The position numbers were made by a program, and so were the translations under genes. From assembly GCA_963765575.1 (NCBI GenBank), contig CAVXWZ010000011.1, positions 352,001 to 416,000 of the forward strand: DNA of 64,000 nucleotides, written 5' to 3'. Shown in pieces: positions 36,572-45,974 of this stretch (the stretch's first letter is position 1; the number at the start of each line of letters is the position of its first letter). This stretch comes from an uncultured cyanobacterium. GTDB lineage: Bacteria > Cyanobacteriota > Cyanobacteriia > PCC-6307 > Cyanobiaceae. Below the pieces are notes generated by a model. That model ran no database searches. It was not told the origin of the DNA and worked only from the letters and a program-made list of their open reading frames with translations.

Positions 36572-37198
36572 ATGATCGCGCCAGCCACCGCGCAGCCCCA
36601 GCCACCACCGGCCCCCACGCCCCGGGCCCCCTCGCCACGGGTCCCCTCGCCACCGGCGCGCTCCTCCGGGCTGGCCACCCAGGCCGACCTGCCGCCCCAG
36701 GCGGTGGAGCGCACCACACGGCTGATTCGCCAGCACCGCGGCCGCGCCGATGCCCTGATCGAGGTGCTGCACCAGGTGCAGGAGCTCTACGGCTACCTGC
36801 CGCCGGGGGCCCTGGCCCAGGTGGCGCGGGAGCTGAAGCTGCCCCTGGCCCGGGTGCACGGGGTGGCCAGCTTCTATCACCTGTTTCGGCTGGACGCCCC
36901 CACCGCCCACCGCTGCGCGGTGTGCCTGGGCACGGCCTGCTTCGTGAAGGGGGGCGGGGATCTGGCCGCCCGCATCGAGCAGCGCCTGGGCCTGCGGCTC
37001 GATGATCCCGCCGGCAACGGCACCTGGGCCCTGGAGCACGTGAGCTGCCTGGGGGCCTGCGGCCAGGCGCCGGTGGTGGTGGTGGACGGCCGGCTGGAAC
37101 CGCGGCTGCCGATGGACGATCCAGCCGCCCTGGACATCCGCCTGGCCGCCCTGGGCCTCACCGCCACGGCGGCCCCTGAACCCGGCGGAGTGAGCTGA
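36572..37198 (+). CDS. hoxE: Bidirectional hydrogenase diaphorase subunit E
   Basis: [43 protein letters not shown]. Confidence 0.94.
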
Positions 37199-38830
37199 TG
37201 GCTTTCCCAGCCCCATTGCAACTGCGCTGCTGCGCCGCCAGCGGCTGCCGCTCCGCCGGCGCCGAGGCCCTGCAGGCGGCGCTGCTGGCCGCCCGCGACG
37301 AGCTCGGCGGCGCCGCCGAGGCGGTGACGATCAAGCCGGTGGGCTGCCTGCGGCTGTGTGGCCGCGGCCCGCTGGTGGCCCTCGACCGCTCCGAGGGGCA
37401 GGCCCCCGAGCTCTATGCCGAGCTCACCCCCGAGCAGGCCCCCGCCCTGCTGGCCGCGGCCACCGGCATGGCCGACAAGCTGGCCGCGCAGCGCCTCGAT
37501 CCCGGCCATCCCTTCTTCGCCCTGCAGAAGGCGGTGGTGCTGGAGGGCTGCGGGGTGGTGAATCCCGAGTCGATCGACGACGCCCTGGCCCACGGCAGCT
37601 ACGCCCAGCTGCGGCGGGTGCTGCTGGAGTGCAGCCCCGAGCAGGTGCGCGAGCAGGTGAAGCGCAGCGGCCTGCGCGGCCGCGGCGGTGCCGGCTATCC
37701 CACGGGCCTGAAGTGGGACACGGTGGCCCTGCAGCCGCCCGGGCCCCGCACCCTGGTGTGCAACGCCGACGAGGGCGACCCCGGCGCCTTCATGGACCGC
37801 AGCGTGCTGGAGAGCGACCCCCACCGGCTGATCGAGGGCATGGCGATCGCCGCCTACGCCGTCGGCGCCGAACAGGGCTACGTGTATGTGCGGGCCGAAT
37901 ATCCGCTGGCGATCGAGCGCCTGCGCCTGGCCCTGCGGCAGGCCCGCACCAAGGGGCTGCTGGGGGCCCGCATCGCCGGCAGCAGCTTCAACCTGCGCCT
38001 GGAGGTGCGGGTGGGGGCCGGCGCCTATGTGTGTGGTGAGGAAACGGCGCTGCTGGCCTCGATCCAGGGGGGGCGCGGCACGCCCCGGCCGCGGCCGCCG
38101 TTCCCCGCCCAGGTGGGCCTGTGGGGCGCCCCCACCCTGATCAACAACGTGGAGACGCTGGCCTCGATCCCGGTGATCCTGCGCGAGGGCGGCGACTGGT
38201 ATGCCGCCATCGGCACCGAGGGCAGCAAGGGCACCAAGGTGTTCGCCCTTTCCGGGGCGGTGGCCCACACCGGCCTGGTGGAGGTGCCGATGGGCACCAG
38301 CCTGCGCACGGTGGTGCAGACCATCGGCGGCGGCGTGCCCGGCGCCGATGGGCCCGATGGCGGCGTCAAGGCGGTGCAGACCGGCGGCCCCTCCGGGCGG
38401 CTGCATCCCCGCCCATCTGCTCGACACGCCGGTGGACTACGAGAGCCTGCAGGCCCTGGGCTCGATGATGGGTTCGGGCGGTCTGGTGGTGATGGGCGAG
38501 ACCACCTCGATGCCGGAGGTGGCCCGCCACTTCATGCGCTTCAGCGTCAACGAGAGCTGCGGCAAGTGCGTGCCCTGCCGCGCCGGCACCGTGCAGCTGG
38601 CCCTGCTGCTCGACCGCTTCGTGGAGCGGCGGGCAACGCTGGCCGACCTCGGGCGGCTGGAGGAGCTCTGCCGCATGGTGGGCGCCACCAGCCTCTGCGG
38701 CCTGGGCCAGGCGGCCCCCAACCCGGTGCTCAGCACCCTGCGCTACTTCCGGCAGGAGTACCAGGCGGCCTGCCGGGAGCCCGGCGACTGCGAACCCCTC
38801 GATGCCTGCCTGCTGCAGGAGGTGACCTGA
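37198..38830 (+). CDS. hoxF: Diaphorase subunit F (NuoF-like); extra G near 38396
   Basis: [37 protein letters not shown]; after the shift, [12 protein letters not shown]...SLCGLG. Confidence 0.93.
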
Positions 38831-39549
38831 TGAGCGTGCTCACCCTCACGGTGGATGGTGTGGAGGTGGCCGTGCCCGCAGGCGCCTCGCTGCTCGATGC
38901 GGTGCGGGCCGCCGGCGTCGAGCTGCCCACCCTCTGCCATCTCGATGGCCTCAGCCCGGTGGGCGCCTGCCGGCTCTGCCTGGTGGAGCTGGAGGGCAGC
39001 GGCAAGCTGCAGGCCGCCTGCGCCACCGCCGCCGGTGAGGGCGTGGCCGTGCTCACCCAGACGCCCCAGCTGCAGAGCTACCGGCGCATGGCGGTGGAGC
39101 TGTTCTTCGCCGAGGGCAACCACGTGTGCGCCTTCTGCGTGGCCAACGGCAACTGCGAACTGCAGGACGTGGCGGTGGCGGTGGGCATGGATCACTCCCG
39201 CTTCCCTTACCAGTACCCGCAGCGCCGGGTGGACGCCTCCCACGAACGCTTCGCGATCGACCACAACCGCTGCATCCTCTGCACCCGTTGCGTGCGCGTG
39301 TGCGATGAGATTGAGGGCGCCCACGTGTGGGATGTGGCCAGCCGCGGCGCTGACTGCGCGATCATCGCCGGCCTCGACCAGCCCTGGGGCGAGGTGCAGG
39401 CCTGCACCTCCTGCGGCAAGTGCGTGGACGTGTGCCCCACCGGCGCCATCTTCAGCAAGGACGACACCACCGCCGAGAAGGAGGCGCAGCGGGAGCGGCC
39501 CCAGCTGCTGCGCAGCGCCCGCGAACAGAAGCAATGGCTGAACCAATGA
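38830..39549 (+). CDS. hoxU: Diaphorase subunit U
   Basis: [49 protein letters not shown]. Confidence 0.95.
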
Positions 39550-40145: not shown

Positions 40146-41606
40146 ATGACCCGCACGATCACGATCGATCCCGTCACCCGCATCGAGGGTCACGCCAAGA
40201 TCACGCTCCACCTCGACGAGGCGGGGCGCCTGGCCGATGCCCGTTTCCACGTGGTGGAGTATCGCGGCTTCGAAACCTTCTGCGAGGGGCGGCCGTTCAC
40301 GGAGATGGCCGGCATCACCGCCCGCATCTGCGGCATCTGTCCGGTGAGCCACCTGTTGGCGGCGGCGAAGACGGGCGACAAGTTGCTGGCGGTGCAGCCG
40401 CCGGCGGCGGCGGTGAAGCTGCGGCGGCTGCTCAACCTGGCCCAGCTCTGCCAGAGCCATGCGCTGTCGTTCTTTCACCTCAGCAGCCCCGATTTCCTGC
40501 TGGGCTGGGAGAGCGATCCGGCTCGCCGCAATGTATTCGGCCTGATGGCCGCCGATCCCGATCTGGCCCGCGCCGGCATCCGCCTGCGCCAGTTTGGCCA
40601 GCAGGTGCTGGAGCTGCTGGGGGGTCGCAAGATTCACTCGGCCTGGGCGGTGCCCGGCGGCGTGCGCACGCCCCTGAGCGCCGAGGCCAGGGAGTGGATC
40701 CTGGAACGCCTGCCCGAGGCCAAGGCCACGGTGGCCACGGCGCTGAAGCTCTACAAAACCCTGCTGGATGGGCCGCTGCAGCGGGAGCAGAGCACCTTCG
40801 GTGACTTCCCCTCGCTGTTCATGGGCCTGGTGGGGCCGGGCGGGCGCTGGGAGTGCATCGACGGCCTGATCCGCTTCACCGACAGCGCCGGCACGGTGGT
40901 GGCCGATGGCCTCTCGGAAGACGACTACGCCAGCTACCTGGGCGAGGCGGTGGAGAGCTGGAGCTACCTGAAGTTTCCGTACTACAAGCCGCTGGGCTAT
41001 CCCGAGGGGATCTACCGGGTGGGGCCCCTGGCGCGGCTGAACGTGTGTGACGCGATCGGCACGCCCTGGGCCGATGCCGAGCTGGCTGAGTTTCGCCAGC
41101 GCAGCGGCACTGCTGAAAGCGGCGGCCGCATCGTGACCTCCTCGTTTGCCTTCCACCACGCCCGGCTGGTGGAGATCGTGGCCTGCCTGGAGGGCATCGA
41201 GCAGCTGGTGGTGGATGACAGCCTGATGAGCGGCCGCATCCGCGCCCGCGCCGACCTCAACGCCAACGAGGCGGTGGGCGTGAGCGAGGCGCCGCGCGGC
41301 ACCCTCTTTCACCACTACTGCGTGGATGACGACGGCCTGATCACCCGCGTGAACCTGATCATCGCCACCGGCCAGAACAACCTGGCCATGAACCGCACGG
41401 TGGCCCAGATCGCCCGCGAATTCATCACCGAGCCAGTAGCCGCTGGCGCCGAGATCCCCGAGCCCCTGCTCAACCGGGTGGAGGCGGGCATCCGCTGCTT
41501 TGATCCCTGCCTGAGCTGCAGCACCCACGCGGCGGGGCAGATGCCGCTGCACATCGAGCTGCGGGATGCTGGTGGGGAGTTGGTGGCGGAGAGGGTGAGG
41601 GATTGA
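40146..41606 (+). CDS. hoxH: [NiFe] hydrogenase large subunit (group 3d)
   Basis: [16 protein letters not shown] (L1), DPCLSCSTH (L2) plus cleavable C-terminal extension. Confidence 0.97.
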
Positions 41607-41632
41607 GCGGTGGGGCTGAGGTGTTGATGTGG

Positions 41633-41802
41633 CCTGAACGGTCTTATAAGGGTCCGCCTAAACTGCCAAGGGTTTGATGCGCTTCTCTGAGACCCACTGC
41701 CATGACGGGTTTCCCTGGCGATAGATTCAAGAGTGAGGGGTTTTATGATGCTGGATCCAGGGGATCCGGATTTTATGCGGATCCGCCTAAGCAGCGTTAG
41801 CC
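41633..41802 (+). mobile_element. attC-like site 1 (long, 170 bp)
   Basis: CCTGAAC ... GGGTCCGCCTAAA pairs imperfectly with TTTATGCGGATCC ... AGC-GTTAGCC core. Confidence 0.7.
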
Positions 41803-42039
41803 TTACGCAAAGTCCATGCGTCCGGCTGCCCTGAGTTCCGAGCCAGGAGATCAAATAGCCGCTGGAGATCATGTTCGTTTGATTTATTTTGCTTCATTCT
41901 ATTCTGCAAGATTCTGACATTATTAAATATTGTTGTTAGCTCAAAAGTCCCCGAAGATGCCGTATGTGAACCTAAACAAAGCAAGCGGTCGGCTTTGCTC
42001 TAAAGTTCTACTACCCGACGTAGTGCTTTACGCGATGAT

Positions 42040-42240
42040 ATGAAAGTGTCCGAGGTTCTCAAAGCGATCAAGGATGATGGCTGGTTTCAAGTGGCCCAGA
42101 GAGGCAGTCATCGTCAATTTAAGCATCCAAGCAAGCCAGGAAGGGTAACCATTGCTGGCAAGCCGTCCGATGAACTTGCAAGGGGCACTCAGATGAGTAT
42201 CCTGAAGCAAGCAGGTCTCCGAGGTTCAGAACAGCCATGA
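42040..42240 (+). CDS. hicA: HicA-family toxin
   Basis: DGWFQVAQRGSHRQFKHPSKPGRVTIAG...GTQMSILKQAGL. Confidence 0.93.
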   Translation: MKVSEVLKAIKDDGWFQVAQRGSHRQFKHPSKPGRVTIAGKPSDELARGTQMSILKQAGLRGSEQP

Positions 42241-42449
42241 AGTACGCAGTAGTCATTGAGAAGGCTGGAGATAACTTTTCGGCCTACGTGCCAGACCTCC
42301 CAGGCTGTATCGTAACTGGCGATACTGCCTCTGAAGCCGAACAGCAGATACGCGAGGCAATTTCATTTCACTTGGACGGGTTACGGGAGGATGGCATGGA
42401 GATACCCGAGCCGTCTTGTGCCGTTGGTTATGTCGAACTTGCTGCATAA
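42237..42449 (+). CDS. hicB: HicB-family antitoxin (short, no DNA-binding domain)
   Basis: YAVVIEK...SAYVPDLPGCIVTGDT...IREAISFHL; overlaps the hicA stop (ATGA). Confidence 0.93.
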   Translation: MKYAVVIEKAGDNFSAYVPDLPGCIVTGDTASEAEQQIREAISFHLDGLREDGMEIPEPSCAVGYVELAA

Positions 42450-42464
42450 CCGAAATGAGGCGAA

Positions 42465-42549
42465 GGCTAACATCCAGATGCAGAAGACGGGAGCAAAATG
42501 CATTGATTATGCCCACACCTCTGCCCGCTTCTGATCTGGAGCGTTAGCC
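42465..42549 (+). mobile_element. attC site 2 (85 bp)
   Basis: GGCTAAC-A-TCCAGAT-g-CAGAAG-a-CGGG ... CCCG-CTTCTG-ATCTGGA-GC-GTTAGCC: stem with two extrahelical bases. Confidence 0.92.
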
Positions 42550-42640
42550 GAATCTGTGAATGGCGGCGGGCTGAGCGGAGGAACAGGATGCGCTCTAGCA
42601 TGTGGGATATTGCTACAGTGTCTTCAAGTCGGAGCTAAAC

Positions 42641-42853
42641 ATGAATTTCACTTTGGAGTGCGAACAAGAAGTAGACGGTCGTTGGATTGCCGAGGTGCCG
42701 GAGCTACCTGGAGTCCTTGCATACGGGAGCTCTTCAACTGATGCAATGTCAAAGGCTGAAGTACTAGCCCTTCGTATTATCGCTGATCGGCTTGAAAATG
42801 GCGAGTCCGAGCCACTCAGCATCCGGTTTTCGCTCCACTCTCTGCATGAGTAA
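42641..42853 (+). CDS. hicB: HicB-family antitoxin (short)
   Basis: EQEVDGRWIAEVPELPGVLAYG...AMSKAEVLALR; GGAG SD upstream. Confidence 0.85.
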   Translation: MNFTLECEQEVDGRWIAEVPELPGVLAYGSSSTDAMSKAEVLALRIIADRLENGESEPLSIRFSLHSLHE

Positions 42854-43057
42854 CTGGCCTTCAGCCAAAGCCAAGAAATATTAGCAGCCTTGCAGTCCAT
42901 TGGATGGAGAGTTAAGCGTCAGTCAGGATCTCACAAGACGCTTGAACATGCAGACTATCCGGACTATGTCTTTGCATTTCATGATGGCGAGGAGATTGGC
43001 CCCAGGATGTTGTCGCGAATCGCCAAGCACACCGGCCTCGAACCAGGTGATCTGTGA
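42846..43057 (+). CDS. hicA: HicA-family toxin with a 1-nt deletion in an A-run near 42877 (absent from the ORF track)
   Basis: MSNWPSAKAKK, then in the shifted frame ILAALQSIGWRVKRQSGSHKTLEHADYPDYVFAFHDGEEIGPRMLSRIAKHTGLEPGDL*. Confidence 0.85.
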
Positions 43058-43072
43058 TGCAGGCGGGAAATC

Positions 43073-43162
43073 GGCTAACAATGCCATACACCTGAGCCGC
43101 CCCCTGATGATCTTTGTTGAGCTTCCTGGCTCTTGGCGGCCAGGTGATGGCGAGCGTTAGGC
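43073..43162 (+). mobile_element. attC site 3 (90 bp)
   Basis: GGCTAAC-AAT-GCCAT-a-CACCTG-a-GCCGCC ... GGCGGC-CAGGTG-ATGGC-GAGC-GTTAGGC. Confidence 0.92.
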
Positions 43163-43184
43163 CTCCAAAAAGAGTTCGCCAGCA

Positions 43185-43601
43185 ATGCACCTTCCTTCTG
43201 TGGCCTTGGTCAAAACTATCCACGCCGGCCTCGCTTACTGCGCCATGGTGCTGGGGGCGGGATTTGTTCTCGGCATGGTCAGGGTTCCGTTCCTGGTGCC
43301 ACGCATCGGTGAGCGCTGGGCGGAACTGGCAGAGATGCCCATCATGGCCATGGTGATCTACGTCGCTGCGGGGGTCATCCTTCGCCGCTTTCCAGAGGTT
43401 GGCTCACCGCCGCGAGCTTTGATCGCTGGTCTGCTGGCCTTGGCGCTACTGGTTGTGGCGGAGCTGGCCCTGGCCACGGTGCTGCAGGGCATGGGCCCTG
43501 CAGAGTTGATCGCCAGCCGCGACAAACTGTCGGGTTCGGTCTATCTCGTTCTCCTGATTGTTTTTGCCGTGATGCCAAGGTTGCGATCACCAGCGCCATG
43601 A
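43185..43601 (+). CDS. Hypothetical 4-TM membrane protein (cassette gene)
   Basis: Starts 23 bp after attC3; four hydrophobic segments; AELAEMPIM. Confidence 0.75.
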   Translation: MHLPSVALVKTIHAGLAYCAMVLGAGFVLGMVRVPFLVPRIGERWAELAEMPIMAMVIYVAAGVILRRFPEVGSPPRALIAGLLALALLVVAELALATVLQGMGPAELIASRDKLSGSVYLVLLIVFAVMPRLRSPAP

Positions 43602-43804
43602 CATCAGCTCTCCCCTGCCAGCATGGAGCTGTTCATTGTCCTCTCTTGATCCGCTTTTGGCGAGGAGAGCAATCTGCCAGGGATCTTGAACATTGATCGC
43701 ATCATCGTCTGGCCTGCGTTTCCAGTCGTAGCGTTAGCTCCCTACCAATCAGCTGTCTACCCCCTACACTATCTGGATGCCAAGAGCGAATCCTGTTGCA
43801 TTCC

Positions 43805-45510
43805 ATGCCGTCTCCCTCCACTGTATCGACTGAGCCCCGCGTCACCACATTTGACGACTTTGTGGGATCGGCTGACTATTCATTGATGGATTCCTTGAAT
43901 CCTGATCCTGAGGCCACCGACGATGGCAACGATCACCGCGTGCGCCAGGTGTTCTCCGGTCATTACGTGCCTGTCACGCCCACACCGCTCGCAGACCCCG
44001 AGTACGTGGCCCACAGCAGCACGTTGTTCCGTGAACTCGGCCTGAGCGACGCGCTGGCACAGAACAATGATTTTCTCAGGATCTTTTCGGGCGATCTCTC
44101 GGCCGCCCATGAGCCCATGCGCCCGTTATGGCTGGGCCACGGGTTATGCCCTCTCGATTTACGGCAGTGAATACAACCAGCAGTGCCCTTTCGGCACGGG
44201 CAATGGCTATGGCGATGGCCGGGCGATCTCTGTGTTTGAAGGCGTCTTCGAGGGCCGGCGCTGGGAGATGCAGCTCAAGGGTGCTGGTCCGACCCCCTAT
44301 TGCCGTGGCGGTGATGGCCGTGCCGTGCTGCGCTCCAGCGTGCGCGAGTTTCTGGCGCAGGAGCACATGCACGCCTTGGGGATTCCCACCTCGCGCTCGT
44401 TGACCCTGGTGGTCTCGTCCTCGGAGACCGTGCAGCGACCATGGTATTCGGCCGATTCCCGCTCCCACGACCCCGATGTTCTGGTGCGTGATCCTGTGGC
44501 GATATCCACCCGCGTGGCGCCATCCTTTCTGCGGGTTGGCCAGCTGGAGTTGTTTGCTCGCCGCGTTCGCCGCAATGCGCATCCAGGGGCCTTGGCTGAG
44601 CTACGCATGATCGTGATGCATCTGATGCAGCGAGAGTATGCATCCGATATCGATCCAGGCCTCGCCTTCAGCGATCAATTGGTGGAGCTGGCCGTGGCCT
44701 TTCGTGGGCCGTCTCACTTCCCTGGTGGCCAACTGGCTGCGCGTGGGCTACTGCCAGGGAAATTTCAACAGTGACAACTGCGCCGCCGGTGGCTTCACGC
44801 TCGATTACGGCCCCTTCGGCTTCTGTGAACTCTTCGATCCCGCCTTCCAGCCCTGGACGGGTGGCGGCGATCACTTCGCCTTCTTCAATCAGCCCGTGGC
44901 GGCGGAAGCCAACTTCCACATGTTCTGGACGGCCGTGCGGCCCCTGCTCGTCGATGACGCCGCAGCCCTTGCCCAGTTCGACGCGGTGCGCCAGGGTTTT
45001 GCCGCTGCGATGGAGAGCCAGATCCAGGCGATGTGGGCCACCAAGCTGGGCCTGGCCACCTACGACCCAACCCTCGTCCAGGAGCTGCTGCGGTTGATGG
45101 TGGCGACCAAGCTGGATCTCACCATCTTCTTCCGCGAGCTCTCCCAGCTGCCAAACGACCTTTCAGCTCTGAGCAACAGCTTCTATGCCGCTCCATCAGA
45201 GCCGCTCGCGGCGGCATGGCACGCCTGGTTGCAACGCTGGCGCGACCGCATCGGCAGCCAGGGCGATCTGGCAGACGTTTCCACACAGATGAAACAGGTG
45301 AACCCGAAATACACCTGGCGCGAGTGGCTGGTGGTTCCCGCCTATCAGCAGGCGGCGCAGGGCGACTACGCCCTGGTGAAGGAGCTGCAGCAGGTGCTCA
45401 CCCACCCCTACGACGAGCAATCGCCAGAGATTGAAGCCAAGTTCTACCGGCTCAAGCCTGAGCACGCCTTCAACGCCGGTGGCGTGTCGCACTACAGCTG
45501 CTCATCCTGA
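43805..45510 (+). CDS. selO: Protein adenylyltransferase SelO/YdiU; frameshifts near 44122 and 44707
   Basis: [65 protein letters not shown]-terminal SCSS. Confidence 0.9.
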
Positions 45511-45545
45511 GCATCGATTCACCCACTGGCCAGGAGCGATCGCTC

Positions 45546-45974
45546 GTGATCGGCATCGGCAACCCCCTGCGCGGCGACGATGGCGTCGGCGCCCTGCTGG
45601 CCGAGTCCGCCGGTGGCCGCTGCGTGCATCAGCTCACGCCCGAGCTGGCTGCCGACCTGGCGCCGTTGCAGCGGCTGTTGTTCATCGATGCCTGGTTGGC
45701 GCCGGGGCAGGCCGGCGAGGCCCCTTCTCCCAGGCTCGACCCCCTGCCCGCCGAGGTCCAGCCCAGCAGCACCTGCAGCAACCACCGCCTCGAACCGGCC
45801 GAGCTGCTGGCGATCACCGCCGCCCTCTACGGCCGCGCCCCCAGCGCCGCCTGGCTGCGGGTGCCCGCCTACGCCTTCGATCACGGCAGCGAACTCTCGG
45901 CGCCGCTGCGCTCATCGCTGCCCGTGGCCCGCCGTCTGCTGCAGCAGTGGCTGGAGGATGGCGCCCATGCATGA
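45546..45974 (+). CDS. hoxW: Hydrogenase maturation protease
   Basis: IGIGNPLRGDDGVG, HQLTPELA, LFIDA. Confidence 0.88.
   Translation: MIGIGNPLRGDDGVGALLAESAGGRCVHQLTPELAADLAPLQRLLFIDAWLAPGQAGEAPSPRLDPLPAEVQPSSTCSNHRLEPAELLAITAALYGRAPSAAWLRVPAYAFDHGSELSAPLRSSLPVARRLLQQWLEDGAHA

Follow-up and report, generated by a model that had tools for sequence, protein, structure and literature searches.

An attI site behind hoxH without its own integrase gene: a probable cassette platform served in trans in Cyanobiaceae

We have analysed a stretch of 64,000 nucleotides (hereafter the window) from an uncultured cyanobacterium of the family Cyanobiaceae, whose genome comprises 2.71 Mb in 11 contigs; the window covers positions 352,001 to 416,000 of contig CAVXWZ010000011.1 (G000:C11:352001-416000 in our handles, where G, C and L stand for genomes, contigs and loci). 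Between the hydrogenase genes hoxH and hoxW it carries a low-GC array of integron cassettes. We have found that the element heading this array, here called site 1, is by homology an attI, the primary integron attachment site, and not an attC as previously proposed. Judged from its sequence, the array is a CALIN (attC sites that lie in a cluster, with no integron integrase) that has kept its own attI, and it is one of several of this kind per genome. We consider it likely, with a probability of about 0.8, that the locus is a satellite integron platform, in which the attI behind hoxH would have lost its integrase gene (intI) in cis while the integrase (IntI) is supplied in trans. Several orphan attI sites of this kind are probably still served by an integrase whose gene lies elsewhere in the genome.

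Identity of the element at the head of the array

The sequence-only reading of the window took site 1 (41633-41802) for an attC and stated that the window contained no attI; neither statement has held. In 30 intI loci of the family, a ~170-bp element stands behind the intI stop codon, its end being found by pattern in 26 of them. A hidden Markov model (HMM) trained on this post-intI DNA from 25 genomes, with the window's genome excluded, matches site 1. An alignment of 39 copies reveals three conserved blocks at fixed spacing, with G, T and T invariant at the crossover, where the copies were chosen to end. Site 1 is laid out in the same way, with three conserved blocks, then an L box, 5 bp and GTT, and the crossover G|TT falls at 41796|41797. 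According to PMC12614218, an attI core consists of two inverted boxes 4-5 bp apart with the GTT crossover at the end, and site 1 agrees with this definition by its L-like box, the 5 bp and the GTT at 41796. In addition, it stands at the array head, the sequence being constant before the crossover and variable after it. It departs from a usual attI in that it is not adjacent to intI. Over the element as a whole, motif columns are better conserved than the spacer (0.67-0.74 vs 0.50). Of 73 named records with sufficient flanking sequence, 9 are also matched by the family HMM in the DNA behind intI, Nitrospira and Planctomycetota among them, and Treponema integron records give no match.

The other two sites proposed as attC were confirmed, both by their bottom-strand hairpins and by matches to an attC covariance model. 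To train the model we used 14 attC sites that belong to intI-linked arrays of other genomes (of 17 candidates, two were dropped as non-attC and one as misaligned); in its structure, derived from the same training sequences, 14 of the 22 pairs have compensatory changes. The three sites of the array are as follows.

41620-41798, + strand: site 1, orphan attI of the co-oriented (inverted-integrase) class; post-intI HMM E 2.8e-4.
42465-42549, + strand (the bottom strand folds): site 2, attC of cassette 1; fold z -4.93; 72.0 bits on the bottom strand, 19.6 on the top strand.
43073-43162, + strand: site 3, attC of cassette 2; fold z -3.77; 73.1 bits on the bottom strand, 15.1 on the top strand.

None of 200 shuffles equals the fold of site 2 or of site 3. 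In both hairpins the AAC/GTT box is paired, the spacer is unpaired, and two extrahelical bases lie 6 bp apart. At each of the two sites the left box complements exactly the seven bases with which the site's own cassette begins, the pattern expected of excisable cassettes.

The explanation that site 1 is nevertheless a long attC, the array having grown from an insertion at a secondary (attG) site behind hoxH, is very improbable. It can appeal to an AAC near the left end of site 1, to palindromic blocks that can be paired on paper, to a fold in which the site ends pair once 2 extra flanking bases are included, and to a crude arm-matching score of 29, equal to the best of 30 shuffles. That crude finder, whose null reached up to 29, was replaced by the covariance model, as was a strict fold test that missed the window's own sites 2 and 3. 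Against a long attC, the fold of site 1 is not significant (z +0.21, 111 of 200 shuffles being as good), there is no attC-model match at E<=10, no consensus base pair appears across the 39 aligned copies (top strand), and the element occurs at array heads and directly behind intI; we have therefore rejected it. Similarly, the attG consensus is only GWT (Loot et al.), whereas site 1 is a 170-bp element conserved genus-wide. The earlier proposal of capture at a secondary site is not supported for this array: a full-length attI homologue stands at its head, and in most of the genus this homologue has a fixed place behind hoxH. An attG-type reading may apply to the junction at 43733 only.

Turnover behind hoxH, the integrase in trans and the orphan sites

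A hoxH match was found in 24 of the 31 other genomes of the same genus, and 22 same-genus loci, including that of the window, were read. The position of the element is conserved: it stands behind the hoxH stop, after a spacer of about 5-100 bp, at 20 of the 22 loci. An HMM built from intI-linked copies only matches 17 of these 20 at E<=0.062; the elements of G267, G255 and G222 were assigned by alignment, those of G267 and G222 being matched also by a wider model. In G155 and G269, hoxW follows 17 bp and 37 bp behind hoxH, respectively, and in G022, from another genus, 46 bp behind it. No intI (E<=1e-3) is present in any of the 11 closed hoxH-hoxW intervals (2.1-17.0 kb), and the nearest intI match lies more than 0.5 Mb from hoxH in the closed genomes G077, G106 and G235 and in G132. 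A second hoxH 3' end with an attI occurs in one assembly (G252:C55, locus L167), as a duplicate or from a second strain. On the tree of the attI sites themselves, those at hoxH account for two changes, or one once L167 is relabelled, with weak support from 180 columns.

The content behind this fixed site turns over. The comparison of relatives gave 19 different first cassettes at 20 sites. In G207, G268, G270 and G253 the hoxH-attI spacer is the same, and four different first cassettes are joined to it exactly at GTT. Overall, 18 of the 20 sites retain GTT, the damaged cores being GGT in G267 and TTT in G252.

An intact integrase in trans, which the sequence-only reading supposed, does exist. 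A profile search of the genome gave no intI match in the window, again as that reading had it, none on contig C11, and one intact full-length copy on contig C2 (C2:324869-325849), which scores 463.7 bits, above the TIGR02249 cut-off of 265. It aligns over its full length, extra domain included, with Vibrio cholerae IntI4 (PDB 2A3V, E 4.8e-88), and in that alignment it keeps the catalytic residues. Its closest named relatives are labelled Synechococcaceae, Cyanobium, Synechococcus and Vulcanococcus, and one 83% match is labelled Chitinophaga; from these labels the organism is probably a picocyanobacterium. The C2 integron is co-oriented, its intI and its three cassettes sharing one strand. The intI stop is followed, ahead of the first GTT, by a ~170-bp element with the layout of site 1. 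Across the whole genome the post-intI HMM (E<1) matches exactly four places:

contig C2, behind intI: attI-type site of the complete integron.
window, behind hoxH: site 1.
C11:664049: attI-type site after a nitroreductase gene.
C2:555695: attI-type site after another host gene.

All six attC-model matches of the genome sit behind these four sites, which are 40-46% alike. The complete integron (G000:C2:324869-328330, L003:9870-13330) carries mazEF, a PemK-like pair and a 209-aa protein as cassettes, and its third attC is missed by the model. It is flanked on the opposite strand by two genes which, from their translations, are presumably mtnA-like and mtnB-like. We have also noticed a short, conserved GGGAA-type motif 25-40 bp upstream of most intI starts of the family (L001, L004-L032), a candidate promoter or operator; at L159 and L193 an intI deletion appears to fuse such a motif to the attI.

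Evidence that points to capture in trans comes from two relatives. In each of them, identical copies of one cassette stand first at the hoxH site and at further attI sites of that genome. This cassette is gene-less and ~137 bp long, and all eight copies in the five genomes searched stand first behind an attI. In G106 the hoxH copy is identical over 139 nt to the copy at another orphan site and 98.6% identical to that at an intI-linked site; in G173 the hoxH copy, 74 nt up to the contig end, is identical to copies at an intI-linked site and at another orphan site. Between genomes the cassette is 89-93% alike. The attI sites beneath the copies are only 45-49% alike, which excludes segmental duplication. 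The cassette itself (L005:1185-1324; array heads in G106, G173 and G132) may be a promoter cassette or a selfish one. Another repeated element in first position directly follows the attI GTT at L030, L121, L141, L142, L146, L173, L177 and L203; contigs often break there, and it is possibly a multi-copy cassette or an attI-targeting mobile element.

These observations can be put together as follows. A co-oriented integron (intI, attI, cassettes) would have come to lie between hoxH and hoxW in the ancestral line of the genus, and its intI would later have been deleted with the attI retained; in the co-oriented layout the attI lies wholly behind the intI stop, so that deletion of intI leaves it intact. 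IntI from the intact gene elsewhere would recognise the hoxH attI as double-stranded DNA and insert circular cassettes at G|TT behind hoxH, by recombination of the folded bottom strand of attC with attI, and it would excise cassettes through attC x attC and attI x attC. Such a division, with attI double-stranded, attC as a folded bottom strand and insertion as attI x attC, is described in PMC12614218. New cassettes would then stand beside hoxH while old ones drift toward hoxW, and the several attI sites of a genome would be served by one to three integrase genes. The former presence of intI at hoxH, the recombination of this site by IntI today and the order of events are what we infer; the sequences themselves show what the sites are, their constant position, the lack of intI in cis, the turnover exactly at G|TT and an intact intI in trans.

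It is unlikely that the site is instead a relic, i.e., an attI left by a dead integron, with arrays that diversified while intI was in cis, or were swapped as blocks, and are now eroding. Genomes with several sites and no intact intI do exist, the damaged cores in G267 and G252 and a cassette 2 toxin gene broken both in the window's genome and in G033 fit with erosion, and a mismatch between attI and hoxH relatedness in G265 and G247 indicates block swaps. However, block swaps cannot bring the identical cassette into first position at several unrelated attI sites of a single genome, and neither the four first cassettes joined at GTT behind one shared spacer nor the GTT intact at most hoxH sites favours a relic.

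The hoxH site belongs to a large set. A sequence model of the element, with 83 candidates scored per genome, gives at least 173 matches in 29 of the 32 genomes of the genus, with up to 17 in one genome; among the 150 matches listed, an intI piece precedes 40 and hoxH precedes 20, the other 90 being elsewhere. In a sample of the family, the element is present in 46 of 141 genomes and 18 of 64 genera. We have assembled 82 orphan loci (80 of 88 from other genomes, and two of the window's genome). Of them, nine retain an upstream intI piece, which in one case is a whole intI separated by an insertion sequence, while 73 show no intI piece at E<=0.05, five of these having less than 1.2 kb upstream. 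Around 80 orphan sites, the attC model gives 81 matches downstream and one upstream; 52 of the 80 have an attC downstream, or 52 of the 66 where at least 1.5 kb is available. The same anchor is found with intI at some loci and with a fragment or nothing at others (L011 vs L159, L193 and L185; L007, L017 and L117 vs L122; L103, L104 and L112 vs L119). In a tree of 127 element copies the sites group by locus, and the intI-linked copies are scattered with 15 changes, on a short alignment with weak deep branches. The grouping by locus rules out recent duplication of attI within genomes.

A further alternative is that the attI arrived at hoxH without intI, moved as a unit by IntI or another recombinase by way of a left inverted partial core, and still acts in trans. 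No hoxH spacer contains an intI remnant beyond a few bases, 73 of the 82 orphan loci have no intI piece, an AAC with a palindromic block mirrors the right end at 15 of the 20 hoxH sites, and the platform sits at dozens of different loci, all of which would suit such movement. On the other hand, the left boundary is no clean crossover, since a sequence like the last intI codons persists left of the AAC at 12 of the 20 sites and the spacers vary between about 5 and 100 bp, and other loci grade from a whole intI through fragments to none. Moreover, attI sites that group by locus, and are 40-46% alike among the four of this genome, do not look recently copied. We judge this alternative slightly less probable than the relic. 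Self-excision of intI at the left inverted core was rejected as unsupported, since the sequence resembling the intI stop persists left of the AAC.

Several observations weigh against the satellite platform, whichever alternative they favour. No genome has been found with intI between hoxH and the element, and the former gene there is accordingly deduced from other loci and from the short left-end motif; this motif, intI-stop-like at 12 of the 20 sites, may just belong to the site. The hoxH genes of G265 and G247 are 97.9% identical and are followed by attI sites of different sub-groups. Whole blocks thus also seem to have been exchanged at hoxH, probably through homologous recombination, and such exchange makes the number of different first cassettes too high. 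An approximately unbiased (AU) test rejects the array-bearing hoxH genes as one clade (p 0.0225). With the hoxH tree nesting both G155 and G269 among array-bearing genomes, this result also speaks against a single gain at hoxH with these two genomes never invaded, while the attI sites at hoxH require one change on their own tree once L167 is relabelled; loss or an exchange of blocks may account for the state of the two genomes. The four arrays of the window's genome have no cassette in common, within-genome copying being seen in relatives only, and a fourth gene-less copy in G106 is 88% identical to the hoxH copy. G116 has seven sites and no intI match, and G039 seven sites with intI fragments only; such sites can thus outlast the integrase, and some must be idle or served by passing integrases. 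Finally, motif columns are better kept than the spacer in three of four sub-groups and equal to it in the fourth (0.778 vs 0.777), and the alignment itself favours motif columns.

Cassettes, the selO junction and the hydrogenase operon

The order at the locus is hoxH, the low-GC array, a frameshifted selO, hoxW, hypA and hypB. GC content falls from 0.65-0.71 in hoxH to 0.43-0.55 across most of the array, which begins 27 bp past the hoxH stop (ending at 41606); both points agree with the sequence-only reading, as does the shared end motif AGCGTTAG, present at 41793, 42540, 43153 and 43730. The term CALIN given there is also apt, the window having two attC sites on one strand, recognised by our own covariance model, and no intI nearby. 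Besides the sites given above, the features of the locus are as follows.

40146-41606, + strand: hoxH, [NiFe] hydrogenase large subunit, left anchor; Pfam NiFeSe_Hases E 1.6e-28.
41797-42543, + strand: cassette 1, with an AT-rich leader, hicA (42040-42240; HicA_toxin E 5.1e-21), hicB (42237-42449; HicB_lk_antitox E 2.8e-14) and attC.
42544-43156, + strand: cassette 2, with a hicB-like antitoxin gene (42641-42853; UPF0150 E 0.0037, weak), a frameshifted hicA (42846-43057; HicA_toxin E 9.4e-12) and attC.
43157-43733, + strand: cassette 3, without attC, encoding a 138-aa hydrophobic protein (43185-43601) with no Pfam family and with unnamed Atlas clusters at 0.95.
43730-43739, + strand: G|TT junction where the selO block begins, a half site or secondary site; no hairpin, no attC-model match.
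43796-45510, + strand: selO (ydiU), protein adenylyltransferase; Pfam SelO E 1.6e-27 and 1.8e-30 in two pieces; two frameshifts.
45546-45974, + strand: hoxW, hydrogenase maturation protease, right anchor; TIGR00072 54.8 bits, above the cut-off.

The earlier claim that the cassettes differ in origin is supported. The match of an 858-nt metagenome contig (record 28) spans exactly 41796-42545; there are 14 differences over these 750 nt, and the contig goes on into other DNA at either end. Cassette 1 is therefore bounded at its exact G|TT ends within other flanks, which suggests that it moves as a unit and has moved recently, in or out. A counterpart of cassette 2, 92% identical, also stands second in the hoxH array of G033, and counterparts of cassette 3, 79-81% identical, are the last before hoxW in G247, G258 and G106. 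Since distal cassettes are common to relatives and the first ones differ, old cassettes appear to be distal and new ones proximal, and by this comparison cassette 3 is the oldest, distal cassette. For excised circles, no public run contains more than 0.25 of the words searched, the share in the one RNA run being 0.05. One contig of depth 2, in which the site 3 end is joined to the cassette 2 start, is too weak to count.

The fourth AGC-GTTAG, with its GTT at 43733, is not an attC end, its z values being -0.25 and -0.29 at two lengths, without an attC-model match. At such a motif selO starts in four genomes (that of the window, G132, G258 and G106; L069, L066, L067), with unrelated DNA upstream. 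The selO block occupies two operon positions, before hoxW or between hoxW and hypA. Its end carries no attC, and the block resembles a cassette-type insertion into half sites. A degenerate attC-like site resembling site 2 lies elsewhere in the genome at the edge of a low-GC island (G000:C4:91583-91660) and is matched by neither model.

Across the genus, 108 open reading frames were called in the hoxH-hoxW intervals and 74 of them scanned; many match toxin-antitoxin or defence-type families, and 37 have no match at E<=1e-5. The cargo includes TIR, GmrSD, HEPN, type I restriction-modification and reverse transcriptases. The hoxH array of G222 (L083:927-4269) is headed by two adjacent reverse-transcriptase genes, a possible defence system.

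A sigma-70 consensus scan gave no + strand promoter in 41400-45700, and promoter and terminator scans of the array gave nothing beyond chance. A TAnnnT hexamer in the middle block of site 1 is a candidate for the cassette promoter Pc. Transcription of the cassettes may start at the hox promoter, as the sequence-only reading proposed, within the element or at promoters of the cassettes themselves; toxin-antitoxin cassettes usually have their own promoters (PMC4909258). The hoxF region (37198-39549) is frameshifted in this assembly, as are selO and the hicA of cassette 2. Relatives' contigs show one-base differences at two places in selO, and single-base differences also in hicA, and thus some of the frameshifts may be sequencing errors.

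Relation to known integrons and significance

Previous work on CALINs (Cury et al. 2016, PMC4889954) named intI loss as one scenario and noted that attI is uncharacterised for most integrons and cannot be searched. The class defined there thus does not split arrays with and without attI, whereas the array of the window retains its own attI and appears to receive cassettes. The C2 integron, in which intI is transcribed toward an attI behind its stop with a GTT crossover, has the layout of the reverse Treponema integrons (Wu et al. 2013, PMC3607928; Tansirichaiya et al. 2016, PMC4909258) and of the archaeal integrons with attI downstream of intI and crossover at GTT (Ghaly et al. 2022, PMC9668308). 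Those papers describe one attI per integron beside intI, while here a ~170-bp attI of three blocks stands mostly without intI.

Arrays without intI at fixed loci across species, with one complete integron per genome, have also been described in Xanthomonas (bioRxiv 10.1101/2025.06.18.660453) and Alteromonas (PMC4119200). The Xanthomonas CALINs were taken to reflect ancestral activity. Each of the three Alteromonas regions is expressed, and those without intI acquire cassettes more rarely than the one with the integrase. The available parts of these papers report no attI at those loci, unlike the array of the window. Small intI-less arrays can further arise through IntI in trans, as in attG insertion and in SALINs (single attC sites lacking an integron integrase; Loot et al., bioRxiv 10.1101/2022.09.11.507474), which may explain the junction at 43733; the GWT motifs of attG are spread over the genome, whereas site 1 is a conserved attI homologue. 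In mobile integrons, attI pieces that end cassettes have been described in an arrangement unlike that of the window (PMC12901181). Within the full-text literature searched, which left most subscription journals and supplements outside its scope, we found no description of an integrase-less attI served in trans or of integrons in Cyanobium.

CALINs are more numerous than complete integrons. They may be relics, products of secondary-site capture or live platforms, and the choice among these is difficult partly because attI cannot be searched in most integrons (PMC4889954). The attI of the co-oriented class is now delimited and hence searchable. According to Loot et al., 95% of CALINs have no recognisable intI pseudogene, and an orphan attI would give another explanation for these. 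Capture in trans becomes testable in culturable cyanobacteria. In addition, the hoxH-hoxW gap is a hotspot where 2-17 kb of genes of the toxin-antitoxin and defence-like kinds are taken up, which is relevant to hydrogenase engineering.

More speculatively, and we hold this as a tentative possibility only, selection may maintain, in these picocyanobacteria, the integrase-less attI sites that lie throughout the genome, right behind host operons or within them, as one distributed integron for which one to three integrases act. A single pool of cassettes would then meet different host promoters, here that of hox, and the gene-less first cassette would act as a mobile switch across the sites. If this is true, a sizeable share of bacterial CALINs would be live capture sites.

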